From Candidatus Saccharimonadota bacterium (GTDB lineage Bacteria; Patescibacteriota; Gracilibacteria; BD1-5; UBA2023): a stretch of 32,000 bases of DNA. The stretch lies in assembly GCA_042852035.1 (NCBI GenBank), contig BAAFHK010000001.1:360001-392000 (forward strand), given 5' to 3'. Of this stretch, positions 1 through 32,000 are shown in pieces; positions within the stretch are counted from its first letter, which is position 1, and each line of letters starts with the position of its first letter. The position numbers were made by a program, and so were the translations under genes. The notes under the pieces were generated by a model. That model saw only the letters and a program-made list of their open reading frames with translations. It had not been told where the DNA came from and did not search any database.

Positions 1-2
1 CT

Positions 3-881
3 AAGAAAAAAATTCTTGAGGAACAACCAGAACTTGCTGATAACAAAGAGTGACTCAGAATAGCTGTACAGAAGGCAATCGATGTGCAATTTATTGAATA
101 CTGTCAACAAAATAGTATTCCTCTCAGTGAGGAATTTATTTCTGGTCAAGAGTCAGCTCTTCAGGCTCAAGACGAATCCGAAGGAGGTGATGAATATGTG
201 CGAGTTGAAACCCAGTGAAGTGTGTTAGCTGTCCAACAAGAATATCTGGATGCAGCAGAGAAGCTCTCGAAAGCATCAGAGCTTTATAATGAAGTACTAG
301 AAGATTTTGATAAAGTTGAGGAAATAAAAATTGAAGATGAAACTGTATATGAGCTTCCAAGAAGCATCATTGAGCTTCCACCATGAGAAACAACCGCTTT
401 TGTGGGCTATACTGGGTGAATAGAAACTGTTTATGAGGCAACTCGAGAAAAAGATGGTGAATATAGTCTCAAGTTCGAAGGTGTGACCCTTATTGATCTC
501 AAAAAAGAGGATCTTGATATTGTTCTGAGTATAAATGATATTCCAATTATTAATACTCTTTTTTCTCGAGATTCAAGGCTCTACTCTCTACTGAGAAACG
601 AGTATGGTGCAACATGAAAGGATAAATTTAAAAATCCACCCGATTGATTTATCGAATTTATATATGAACGGTTAAATCAGGCATATCTTGCTACCTTACC
701 AAATGGTTCTGAATCGTTTCTCTGAATCCCTTTACCAGAATGAACTCCCGAAGAACAAGGTCGCTATATTCGGCGTGTTCTCACTACAAACATATCTATT
801 AGAGATGAAGCAATGAAACGACTTTATAGTCAAAAAATAGTTATTTGATGAAAAATTAATTTGTCGCTATTTCCAATATAA
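3..881 (+). CDS. hypothetical protein, 5'-truncated at the window edge
   Basis: Frame 3 is open from the window edge to TAA 879-881 only if about ten in-frame TGA are read as sense. The product is acidic and helical (..EEFISGQESALQAQDESEGGDEYVRVE..). I recognise no family. Confidence 0.55.
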
Positions 882-938
882 AGATTTGGAGAAAAATCAC
901 TTGCTTCTATACTTCCATCATTTATTGATGGTTTTTTT

Positions 939-2099
939 ATGACTCAATTTTCATTTTCTCTTGATGCAATGGATGGATCAGCGCGAGCTTGAACGCTCAT
1001 AACTCCTCATGGAATGGTTCATACCCCAATATTTATGCCAGTCGGTACTCGGTCAGCTATAAAATGACTTACAACCGATCAAATTCAAGAAATCGGTTCA
1101 GAGATTATGTTAGTCAATAACTATCACTCTTACTTGAGACCAGGGTGTGATGTAGTCGAGTCATTCGGATGACTTCATAATTTCATGAATACTCAACTTC
1201 CAATTTTAACTGATTCTGGATGATTTCAGGTTTTTTCACTTGGACTTGGGATGACGAATGAGAATGGAGAGAAACTTGCAAAAGTTACCGAAGAATGAGT
1301 TCATTTTCGCTCCTATCTTGATGGTTCAAAGCATTTTTTTTCCGCAGAAAAAGTTATGGATATGCAGTCATCCCTTGGTGCTGATATTATTATGGCGTTT
1401 GATGAATGTGCACCAGGAGGTTCAACTCATGTATATGCAAAAGCTGCCATGGAACGAACCCATCGTTGGGCACTTCGCTCTAAAGAACAATGGCTTAAAA
1501 ATGAAGAAATTCGTAAGAAAAAATGACTCTATCCTCAAGCACTTTTTGCTATTATTCAGGGAGTAATTTATGATGATCTTCGAGCGGAATCAGCACATTA
1601 TATTGCTTCGCTTGATACTCCTGGAATTGCTATCTGAGGGCTTTCGGTGGGCGAGAGTAAGCAAGATATGTATAGAATCCTTGATGTACTCGAACCAATT
1701 CTCCCAAAAGAAAAACCACACTATCTTATGGGAGTTGGCACTCCCGAAGATTTGATTGAGTGAATTGCTCGAGGGATTGATATGATGGACTGTGTTCTTC
1801 CGACTCGAATTGGTCGACATGGAGAGGTCTTTACCTCCTTCGGAAATCTCAAAATTGGCAATGAAAAATATAAGTATAGTCAAGAAAAAATTCCTATGGC
1901 TCCAGGCTTCGAAACGAGTGTCTCAAAAAAATATTCTCTCGGATATCTTCGTCATCTTATTAATGTTTGAGAGGCGACTGGTTGAGCTCTCCTCTCTCTT
2001 CATAATATTGAATATCTTCTTTTGCTCGCTAAAAAATCCCGCGAAGCAATACTCGCGGGAAAATTTCATGAATTTTATAGATCATTGACTAAGTGCTAG
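939..2099 (+). CDS. tgt: queuine tRNA-ribosyltransferase
   Basis: Runs from ATG 939 to TAG 2097-2099, with about 10 TGA read as Gly. The hand translation carries Tgt motifs: [37 protein letters not shown] (TGA 1221-1223 is the second G), GIAIGGLSVGE and [35 protein letters not shown]. Confidence 0.93.
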
Positions 2100-2101
2100 A
2101 T

Positions 2102-29436: not shown

Positions 29437-30864
29437 ATGACTCGATATTCCCTAGAGTATGATCTTTTTCTCGGTGTCACGGAGTCATTTTGTCATCTTT
29501 GCAATAATAAAGAAAAACTTATTCCAGCACATATTGTCACGAAAGGAGAGAGTGTACTTTTGCGAAAATTTTGTAACAAATGTGGTGAATCCTTCGCAAC
29601 GGTTTCGACAGATTTCGACTACTATAAAAAATGTAATGAATATCTAAAGAAGCCGGATCTTCCAGAAATAGCTCTAACTCCAATACTTCGGGGTTGTCCT
29701 TTTGATTGCGGAGTTTGTCCGCAACATCAGAATCATCCCTGTCTTGCGCTTTTCAATATCAATGATGAATGCAACATGAAATGCAATATCTGTTATCATT
29801 CTTCAGAGCCAGGAAGTGGGAATTTTAGAAGTATCGATGAAATAAAGAAAATGCACGAGACACTTCTTCAGGTAGAGTCGACCCCCGATCTTATCCAGGT
29901 TACGGGAGGGGAGCCATCGATTCATCCAGATATTATTGAAATTTTGAAGTACCTAAAATCCTGACCCGTTCGACACCTTATGCTCAACACAAACGGAATT
30001 CGTATATCACATGATGAGGATTTTGTAAAAGAACTTAAAGATATTGGAAAGGGGTTTGAGGTCTATCTGCAATTCGATTCACTCAATCCAGAGGCCCTAA
30101 ATAGTATACGAAATGCTGATATGACGAAAGTTCGACAGAAGGCACTTGAAATGCTTGAAAAATATCATATCTCAACGACATTGGTTTGCGTGATTGAAAA
30201 GGGGGTCAATGATGAGGAAATTCCAAAACTTATAGAACATGCAAAGTCATGGAAGTGTGTACGGGGGATAGTTTTTCAGCCGATACAAAATGTTTGAAGA
30301 AATGCCATTGAAGATCATGACTACCGAATCACGCTCTCGGAAATCCGTAATATTATAGTGAAAGATGAATCAAATCCATTTGCTGAGGATGATATGATTC
30401 CTCTCCCATGTGATCCGCATAAAATTTGTGTCGGATACGCGATCAAGAATGGAAAAGATATCCTTCCGGTAACTGGAAAAATTCCAAGAGAAATGATTAC
30501 TGAACAGAAGGGGACAATTGCTTTTGAACAGGACAAAGAGTTTATCAAAACAGTAGTTCATGCTGTAACACTAGATACGGCTCTCGGTGAAAATATTATC
30601 AATAAAGAAAGCGTAAAACGTAAGCTTTTCTGTTGTTGGCCAGAATTTATTGCCCCAGAAGATATGACCTACGAGAGAGTATTTCGTATCGTTATCATGG
30701 AGTTCACCGATATTTATAATTTCGACAGCACCAATATTAAGCGAGAATGTAACTTTATGATCGAGCCCGGTAAGGTAATACCATTTTCTACTTACAATAT
30801 GGGACTTTCTCGTAGTTCAGAAAAGCCAAATCTAAGAGAAAAACTCGAAGCATGGAAAAAATAG
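29437..30864 (+). CDS. radical SAM enzyme, COG1964-type (GDGT-MAS / tetraether lipid synthase Tes-like architecture)
   Basis: ATG 29437 lies 5 nt after the upstream stop. Three track ORFs (29401, 29980, 30358) share one frame and join across TGA 29962 and 30295. Stop is TAG 30862-30864 (475 aa). Order of elements: an N-terminal CxxC...CxxC pair (CHLCNN...CNKCG), a second Cys cluster (GCPFDCGVCPQHQNHPC), the radical SAM CxxxCxxC (ECNMKCNICY), then QVTGGEPSIHP, MLNTNGIRI and VFQPIQNVG. Confidence 0.8.
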
Positions 30865-30885
30865 GCTCATTTTTTTAGTATTCAT

Positions 30886-31413
30886 ATGTTTCACTCGACC
30901 ATCAAGCGAACAAAGCGTCGCACTCTTGCACTTCAGATAGATCATGAAGGAAATCTTATTATCCGTGCTCCGAACCGTATGCCCATGAGTCTTATCGAGG
31001 AATTTATAGCACAAAAAATAGACTGGATAAAAAAACATCAAAAGAGGATACAAGAAAAAAATAGTCTGCAACCACAAAAAACTTACAATAAAAATGAGTT
31101 CTTAACCGCTAAAAAAGAATTACAAGACTATCTTCTTCTAAGAGTACGAATGCTCTGGGAAAACACTAAACTTCCCCCCTATACTTCACTCAAAGTAACT
31201 CATTCGAATAAAAGATGGTGAAGTTGTAGCGGGAAGAATGGACTTTGTTTTTCTTATAGGCTTCACCAGTATATCGATGAAGATCCGAAGATTATCGATG
31301 CAATCATATACCATGAGCTTGCTCATCTAAAAGAGAAAAATCATGGAAAAAAATTTTGGGATATTGTTTTTTTCCTCGAGCCCAACTATAGAGATATCAT
31401 GAAAAGACTTTAA
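30886..31413 (+). CDS. YgjP/DUF45-type (M48-like) zinc metallopeptidase
   Basis: Track ORF 30886-31221 continues through TGA 31219-31221 to TAA 31411-31413 (175 aa). KRW[TGA=G]SCS matches the family RWGSC motif. The HExxH site is IIYHELAHLKEKNHGKKFW. Confidence 0.85.
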
Positions 31414-31419
31414 TTTTTA

Positions 31420-32000
31420 TTAGACAATATTTCCTATTTCTTCAGAAACTTTATTATCCGAATACCCATCAACAATATATGTTTTAATCGGTTTCTGCCT
31501 TCCTTTTATAGACTCTTCGGAAAGGAAGTGAATCCCAAAACTATCAAGTTTTTCGATCCCATTGTAGGTTGTTTCACTGATAATAATGCGAGCATTATAG
31601 GTTCGAGTAAGTTTTTCAAGTGCAGCAGTGATATTCACGGCTTGTCATATCACCGTAGCCTCCATGCGATCTTCAGTACCAACAGTTCAGAGAGTTACTC
31701 TTCATCGATTGATTCCGATGCCGACATGAATTTCCTTTCAGAGAGTATTTTGTTGAAATGTTTTTATATATTCTTGTATTTCAATAGCAGCAGAGAGAGA
31801 TGCATCGGTATTTTTTCCATCAAATATAGCAAGTATCCCATCACCGAGATATTTATCGATGTACCCCCCATACTTTGTTATACACTCACCGATACCATCG
31901 AAATAGATATTGAGAAGCAAGAGGGTTCTATAAGGATCATGGATCTCTTCGCACATAGTAGAGAATCACTTTATATCAAGAAACATTATAGTGTATTCTT
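31420..32000 (-). CDS. class III adenylate/guanylate cyclase domain protein, 5'-truncated at the window edge
   Basis: Stop is TAA 31420-31422. Track ORFs 31420-31638 and 31738-31956 join across four TGA. The frame remains open to position 32000. Motifs: MFLDIKGFST, KYLGDGILAIFDG, VGIGINRG[TGA]RVTLG[TGA]TVGTEDRMEATVIG[TGA]QAVNITAALE. Confidence 0.85.

Follow-up and report, generated by a model that had tools for sequence, protein, structure and literature searches.

In genetic code 25, the Candidate Division SR1/Gracilibacteria code, UGA specifies glycine (Campbell et al. 2013; Rinke et al. 2013; Hanke et al. 2014, PMC4032931). One of the bacteria for which this code has been reported is HHAS10, an episymbiont of Zoogloea from activated sludge that belongs to the class JAEDAM01; in the same study, Codetta assigned UGA to glycine in JAEDAM01 metagenome-assembled genomes (MAGs), including that of HHAS10 (Fujii et al. 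2024, Environ Microbiol Rep, PMC11393006). Here, we analyzed a 32-kb stretch of DNA with a G+C content of 37.7% (contig BAAFHK010000001.1, positions 360,001 to 392,000; referred to below as the window), for which an earlier note had proposed that TGA is decoded as glycine throughout. Our analysis of its reading frames, homologues, and codon usage indicated that the window almost certainly came from a Gracilibacteria-group bacterium that uses genetic code 25, with UGA read as glycine, UAA and UAG serving as the sole terminators, and UGG read as tryptophan. The assignment of UGA to glycine was true, yet it was already known for HHAS10 itself.

Indeed, seven of the translations that we made with TGA as glycine were identical to protein entries at NCBI for Candidatus Altimarinota bacterium HHAS10 (range GAB0174488 to GAB0174512; the accession numbers are given with the genes below). 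When the YbeY and YgjP-like proteins were translated with TGA as tryptophan (the two proteins tested in this way), no match was found in the protein collection. Because the glycine translations matched its proteins exactly, the public HHAS10 record had already been annotated with table 25. Thus, the finding has no novelty, since code 25 is established and has been both published and annotated for this bacterium. Candidatus Altimarinota has the taxid 363464, under which Gracilibacteria are listed by Shulgina and Eddy 2021 (PMC8629427). The window and the work of Fujii et al. 2024 concern the same genome; their assignment is a genome-wide Codetta call, and what is added here is site-by-site evidence for 32 kb and the TGA usage of each gene.

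The window agreed with code 25 in its use of UGA for glycine, in having UAA and UAG as the only stops, in its use of UGG for tryptophan, and in its low G+C content. The lineage, which falls in the Gracilibacteria group of Patescibacteria (Candidate Phyla Radiation [CPR]), was also in agreement, as was a relative's tRNA(UCA) with glycine identity elements. No difference from code 25 was found in the 32-kb window or in the loci of its relatives. Genetic code 4, in which UGA specifies tryptophan, is used by Mycoplasmatales and Entomoplasmatales, including Mycoplasma and Spiroplasma, and by some insect endosymbionts. It is like the code of the window in that UGA is read as sense and translation stops at TAA and TAG, and it yielded identical open reading frame (ORF) length statistics, but the amino acid here was glycine rather than tryptophan and the lineages are unrelated. 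The extended code of Absconditabacteria (SR1), in which CGA and CGG are predicted to specify tryptophan (Shulgina and Eddy 2021, PMC8629427), shares UGA as glycine and CPR membership with the window. In contrast to that code, CGA was abundant here, and both CGA and CGG aligned with arginine.

To define the coding content, we used a set of 24 curated genes that covered about 92% of the window (9,809 codons). GGN codons and in-frame TGA codons are referred to jointly as glycine-type codons. The genes that were used for comparisons with distant homologues or with relatives, and whose termini or motifs are discussed first, were as follows.

939-2099, plus strand: tgt, tRNA-guanine transglycosylase (Pfam TGT, E=2e-127); ten TGA codons, at 990, 1065, 1170, 1221, 1296, 1524, 1635, 1761, 1968, and 1983; ends with TAG; GAB0174488.1.
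5285-8851, plus strand: rpoB; three TGA codons, at 6296, 7955, and 8246, which make up 3% of its glycine-type codons; ends with TAA; the protein and E. coli RpoB share 52% identity (1051 aligned residues).
9003-13010, plus strand: rpoC; ten TGA codons, at 9234, 9315, 9816, 11526, 12003, 12099, 12228, 12264, 12615, and 12843; ends with TAG; the protein is 47% identical to E. coli RpoC.
15952-16404, minus strand: ybeY endoribonuclease (Pfam YbeY, E=1e-28); three TGA codons, at 16060, 16042, and 15970; ends with TAA; GAB0174496.1.
16408-17382, minus strand: murB (Pfam MurB_C, E=1e-22); 19 TGA codons, which make up 58% of its glycine-type codons; ends with TAA; GAB0174497.1.
27637-28380, plus strand: lgt (Pfam LGT, E=5e-17); three TGA codons, at 28021, 28027, and 28186; ends with TAA; GAB0174508.1.
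30886-31413, plus strand: YgjP-like (M48/SprT-type) metallopeptidase (Pfam YgjP-like, E=7e-31); one TGA codon, at 31219 (KRW-TGA-SCS); ends with TAA; GAB0174512.1.
31420-31998, minus strand: class III adenylate/guanylate cyclase domain, with the N-terminus past the end of the window (Pfam Guanylate_cyc, E=1e-13); five TGA codons; ends with TAA.

The proposal that conserved genes were fragmented by in-frame TGA held for the gene set as a whole, as 208 in-frame TGA codons were spread over 23 of the 24 genes and the frame continued beyond them. When ORFs were called again with different tables, table 11 gave just three ORFs with a length of 300 amino acids or more, compared to 17 when TGA was treated as sense, and the union coverage of the ORFs rose from 14% to 71%. 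This gain was particular to TGA, because making TAA or TAG a sense codon in control calls gave just three and four ORFs of at least 300 amino acids, respectively. Code 4 restored the ORF lengths just as well as code 25. All 24 genes ended with TAA (18 genes) or TAG (six genes) and with no other codon, in keeping with the claim that these are the genuine stops. The Pfam matches of Tgt, YbeY, MurB, Lgt, and the YgjP-like protein stopped 0 to 7 residues short of the C-termini that these codons define, and Pfam domains ran unbroken over TGA codons; for example, the TGT match extended across all ten TGA codons in tgt.

The individual sites that had been quoted as evidence were also found to be in-frame TGA codons. 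On the plus strand, these were 9234, 9315, 11526, 12003, and 12843 in rpoC, 7955 in rpoB, 1221 in tgt, and 31219 in the YgjP-like gene; position 16060 is TCA on the plus strand and thus TGA in the minus-strand ybeY gene. In addition, our TGA counts matched those reported previously for rpoB, tgt, the gene at 23708-25321 (14), and the MarR gene (0). Treating TGA as sense produced 114 ORFs that measured 100 amino acids or more from stop to stop, for just 24 genes. Two such antisense ORFs, 25359-25844 (minus strand) opposite the MarR gene and 31414-31998 (plus strand) opposite the cyclase gene, were rejected as genes; they were shadows of the real genes, despite BLAST matches in relatives.

To identify the amino acid, we took six conserved proteins (RpoB, RpoC, Tgt, YbeY, MurB, and Lgt), aligned each with its counterpart in E. 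coli K-12, and tabulated the residue opposite each of the 62 codons that occurred in them. TGA was opposite glycine at 25 of 47 sites (53%; binomial p = 2e-15), and it was never opposite tryptophan or cysteine. For comparison, the fraction opposite glycine was 55% for GGG, 44% for GGC, 66% for GGA, and 78% for GGT, and TGG was opposite tryptophan in 39% of cases. The most frequent residue was the standard amino acid for nearly all well-sampled codons; the exceptions were TGC (four codons) and TCC (seven codons), for which the counts were too small to interpret. Thus, TGA did not align mainly with tryptophan, and the earlier argument that conserved tryptophans remain TGG, which was made against code 4, was borne out by the TGG codon at position 7541 of rpoB.

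Several individual sites were informative. The TGA codon at 7955 in rpoB was opposite the glycine in the LAPGV motif of E. coli, and two TGA codons in lgt were opposite glycines in the E. coli sequence GLGAGRLGN. In the case of ybeY, the earlier note had recognized the TGA codon at 16060 in the motif H-TGA-LLHILGFDH; that codon was present, but the second glycine, which the note had written as G, is also encoded by TGA, at 16042. The zinc motif is therefore H-x-LLHIL-x-FDH, and both of its TGA codons were opposite glycines in the E. coli motif HGSLHLLGYDH. Nine of the 19 TGA codons in murB were opposite glycine in E. coli MurB, despite an overall identity of just 25%.

Similar results were observed with other distant homologues. 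We assembled 149 Tgt representatives with 37-56% identity, using the code 4 translation of the window Tgt as the query. Five of the ten TGA columns were 84-99% glycine (125, 139, 148, 140, and 147 of the 149 representatives), and tryptophan occurred in 25 of 1490 cells, most of which belonged to a single variable column. When Tgt, MurB, and the cyclase domain were aligned with proteins in the PDB, glycine was again placed opposite TGA. Specifically, seven of the ten tgt codons were opposite glycine in Zymomonas TGT, and three of the five cyclase codons were opposite glycine in a photoactivated adenylyl cyclase of solved structure, including TILGDAVNVAARLE. The cyclase motif that had been quoted for this gene, IG-TGA-xxVN, was found in no frame; the actual motif on the minus strand is VI-TGA-QAVN.

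Next, we examined close relatives. An RpoC scan of GTDB genomes yielded 40 loci, all of them from Candidatus Gracilibacteria or Patescibacteria MAGs with RpoC proteins 73-90% identical to that of the window, which, together with the GTDB class JAEDAM01, agreed with the proposed placement in a Gracilibacteria lineage that uses UGA for glycine. When seven genes were aligned codon by codon, a window TGA faced GGA (229 cells), GGT (120), GGG (25), GGC (14), or TGA (128). Hence, GGN codons accounted for 388 cells and TGG for none of about 700, and the window TGG codons faced tryptophan in 95.6% of cells. At 7955 in rpoB, the relatives had GGA (21), TGA (4), or GGT (2), and at 31219 in the YgjP-like gene they had TGA (7), GGA (6), GGG (2), or GGT (1). 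The latter gene had been called an M48 peptidase; it does encode a metallopeptidase with TGA at that position, but Pfam placed it in the YgjP-like family and NCBI named it a SprT family metalloprotease. In rpoC, eight of the ten TGA sites were wholly or partly GGN or TGA in 36 relatives.

The amino acid composition pointed in the same direction. Glycine content was 5.4% when TGA codons were left out and a normal 7.5% when they were counted, and tryptophan content was 0.8% from TGG alone. In the 24 genes, UGA accounted for 28% of all glycine-type codons. The E. coli table, the Tgt columns, and the interchange of GGN and TGA in relatives all provided support for the proposal that TGA is glycine across the window.

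Three points weighed against this conclusion. First, about half of the TGA codons in the conserved genes faced residues other than glycine in E. coli (alanine 5, leucine 4, lysine 3, and others); in rpoC, the residues were glycine (5), alanine (3), lysine (1), and leucine (1). The same table shows that GGC and GGG also faced nonglycine residues at variable positions. The description of the TGA sites as invariant glycines was therefore correct for many of them, about half in the E. coli comparison, but not for all; it was overstated for rpoC 11526 (ATHG-TGA-RKG), because E. coli has alanine there. Second, ARAGORN found no tRNA(UCA) within the 32-kb window, in which the sole tRNA was tRNA-Phe(GAA). 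Third, our data came from the window and the relatives' loci only, so a tRNA-Gly(UCA) and the loss of prfB are features that we infer for HHAS10.

A dedicated tRNA-Gly(UCA) that keeps the identity elements for glycyl-tRNA synthetase (G1:C72, C2:G71, G3:C70, and U73) would read UGA, and release factor 2 (RF2, encoded by prfB), which otherwise terminates translation at UGA, would have been lost. Established knowledge of code 25 suggests that both apply to HHAS10. A candidate tRNA was found in one relative, Patescibacteria bacterium UBA5532 (contig DINU01000004.1), whose rpoC is 75% identical to that of the window. This 79-nucleotide tRNA with the anticodon UCA (2253-2331, minus strand) is located directly upstream of rpoB and adjoins a tRNA-Arg(GCG); no counterpart was found upstream of rpoB in the window. 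It has G1:C72, C2:G71, G3:C70, U73, an encoded CCA, a 7-bp acceptor stem, and a short variable loop, and it thus satisfies the glycine-acceptor criteria for tRNA-Gly(UCA), namely G1:C72, C2:G71, G3:C70, and U73 (Shulgina and Eddy 2021, PMC8629427). ARAGORN named it tRNA-SeC, which might be taken to favor selenocysteine insertion, but this is a mislabel that rests on the anticodon alone. In a selenocysteine tRNA, the variable arm is long and the acceptor/T-arm geometry is 8/5 or 9/4, and the relative's tRNA has neither the longer acceptor stem nor the long arm. A search for the class I release factor motif [GX][GX]QHVN gave no match in the window or in about 640 kb of related loci, which are partial genomes.

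We also considered whether code 25 might be accompanied here by a reassignment of CGA and/or CGG to tryptophan, since Shulgina and Eddy 2021 (PMC8629427) predicted such changes in Absconditabacteria and in some Gracilibacteria. The prediction for some Gracilibacteria concerns CGG (same source), and this codon was rare in the window (15 codons, or 15 per 10,000). CGA, however, was common (124 codons), and the residue opposite it was arginine in 53% of the comparisons with E. coli and in 87% of the relatives' cells. CGG faced arginine in three of four comparisons with E. coli and in 73% of 44 relatives' cells, which is a small sample; tryptophan was never opposite CGG in E. coli and was outside the top five residues that faced it in relatives. 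As both codons aligned with arginine, we rejected this reassignment for the window and regard it as very unlikely.

The possibility that TGA specifies tryptophan, as in code 4, was less likely still, even though code 4 was picked by the automatic gene caller and many public proteins carry its mark. The copy of the window's own Tgt in the Logan collection (P0001) has tryptophan in place of glycine at all ten TGA positions, and 100 of the 120 nearest public Tgt homologues have tryptophan in at least one of 14 near-invariant glycine columns. These homologues were translated with code 4 rather than code 25, and the same artifact was present in three of the 149 distant representatives. Against code 4, the chance of finding no tryptophan opposite 47 TGA codons in E. 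coli would be 8e-11 if TGA behaved like TGG. Moreover, TGA and TGG did not interchange in any of the relatives' cells, TGA occupies near-invariant glycine columns of Tgt, and the window proteins would need an implausible tryptophan content of 2.9%.

The idea that the TGA codons are true stops, as a result of pseudogene formation, assembly or sequencing errors, occasional read-through, or selenocysteine insertion, explains the broken ORFs under table 11 but has a negligible probability, because the 208 interruptions were all TGA, with no TAA, no TAG, and no frameshift even in the essential genes rpoB, rpoC, and murB, dozens of independent MAGs have TGA or GGN at the same sites, and the TGA sites faced glycine and never cysteine. 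Since distant homologues, relatives, and composition all agreed on glycine, code 4, selenocysteine, pseudogenization, and sequencing error were ruled out in favor of code 25.

The gain from this result is practical, and its scientific gain is nil, given that code 25, with UGA as glycine, is already established for this clade. Because UGA is a glycine codon here, gene calling with table 11 shatters the genes of the window and yields about 48 fragments where there are 24 genes. Falling back on code 4 yields full-length proteins with tryptophan at invariant glycine positions, and such mistranslated proteins are plentiful in public metagenomic protein collections. Any later annotation of the window must use table 25.

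The remaining genes of the window, of which the protein-coding ones were included in the analysis of TGA usage, were as follows.

3-881, plus strand: hypothetical protein, with the 5' end cut by the window; ten TGA codons; ends with TAA; open only with TGA as sense; no Pfam match.
2102-3658 and 3679-5013, minus strand: two adjacent glycine-rich proteins with N-terminal hydrophobic segments; 26 and 18 TGA codons, respectively; no Pfam match for either.
13165-13941, plus strand: Kazal-domain protein (Pfam Kazal_1, E=2e-9, spanning TGA codons); eight TGA codons.
14018-15118, plus strand: acyltransferase_3 (Pfam Acyl_transf_3, E=2e-17, spanning TGA codons); 13 TGA codons.
15200-15274, minus strand: tRNA-Phe(GAA) (ARAGORN; Rfam tRNA, 67.6 bits).
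15325-15933, minus strand: hypothetical protein; 11 TGA versus three GGN codons; no Pfam match.
17717-18244, minus strand: TPR protein (Pfam); eight TGA codons.
18228-19031, minus strand: VWA protein (Pfam); nine TGA codons.
19037-21469, minus strand: DUF4012 protein (Pfam); 18 TGA codons.
22036-23595, plus strand: DUF2130 protein (Pfam DUF2130, E=6e-63); nine TGA codons; 47% G+C.
23708-25321, plus strand: hypothetical protein; 14 TGA versus four GGN codons (78%); 25% G+C.
25389-25814, plus strand: MarR-family regulator (Pfam MarR_2, E=1e-7); no TGA and ten GGN codons; 55.6% G+C; GAB0174505.1 (HHAS10_03840, 100% identity, on a contig of 750,307 bp).
25863-27050 and 27159-27611, plus strand: two hypothetical proteins; two TGA codons each; the second is GAB0174507.1.
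28712-29431, plus strand: membrane protein; four TGA codons.
29437-30864, plus strand: radical SAM protein (Pfam Radical_SAM, E=4e-24); two TGA codons.

Among the 24 genes, the TGA share of glycine-type codons varied between 0 and 0.79 (chi-square 155.7, p = 1e-21) and was negatively correlated with the G+C content of the gene (Spearman rho = -0.63, p = 0.001). Low shares were observed for MarR (0), rpoB (0.03), rpoC (0.10), and the block at 25863-31413, and high shares were observed for 15325-15933 (0.79), the AT-rich gene at 23708-25321 (0.78), and murB (0.58). One explanation, which we consider possible but rather doubtful, is that the gradient arose because selection disfavors the decoding of UGA as glycine in genes that are highly expressed or dosage-critical. 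If that were true, decoding by tRNA-Gly(UCA) would be slower or less accurate than the decoding of GGN codons. The alternative is that the TGA share merely follows local G+C content.

The MarR gene, the sole gene with no TGA codon, forms a GC island in the window, with 61% G+C at third codon positions. Its orthologues in eight relatives (L006, L010, L017, L021, L022, L025, L028, and L034) were also free of TGA, with 54-58% G+C and 67-74% amino acid identity. The possibility of a structured RNA hidden in this region was rejected, as the region had no Rfam match and conservation at its four-fold sites was only a little higher than in rpoC (identity of 0.55 versus 0.46, a modest difference). For the same reasons, MarR looks like an ordinary protein gene that has a composition rich in alanine, arginine, and glycine and shows low TGA use similar to that of rpoB.

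G+C content changed in abrupt steps between 22036 and 25814, from 47% in the DUF2130 gene to 25% in the gene at 23708-25321 and then to 56% in the MarR gene, so that the region may be mosaic or accessory. The gene at 23708-25321 had no homologue in the 40 related loci and no Pfam match at E<0.01. Its previous description as AlbA_2-like was unsupported, because the SLFN_AlbA_2 match (E = 0.21) fell below the cut-off.

As for the adjacent glycine-rich proteins encoded at 2102-5013, these are probably secreted or surface proteins of the episymbiont; most TGA sites of the gene at 3679-5013 were GGA or TGA in four relatives. The Kazal (serine protease inhibitor) gene is located directly downstream of rpoC, a position that was kept in about 20 related Gracilibacteria loci, and a Kazal domain is unusual for a bacterium. 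Finally, a zinc ribbon of the HMPTM type (Pfam PF23545, E=4e-7) is present at the N-terminus of the radical SAM protein, whose gene is flanked by the membrane protein gene and the YgjP-like peptidase gene.

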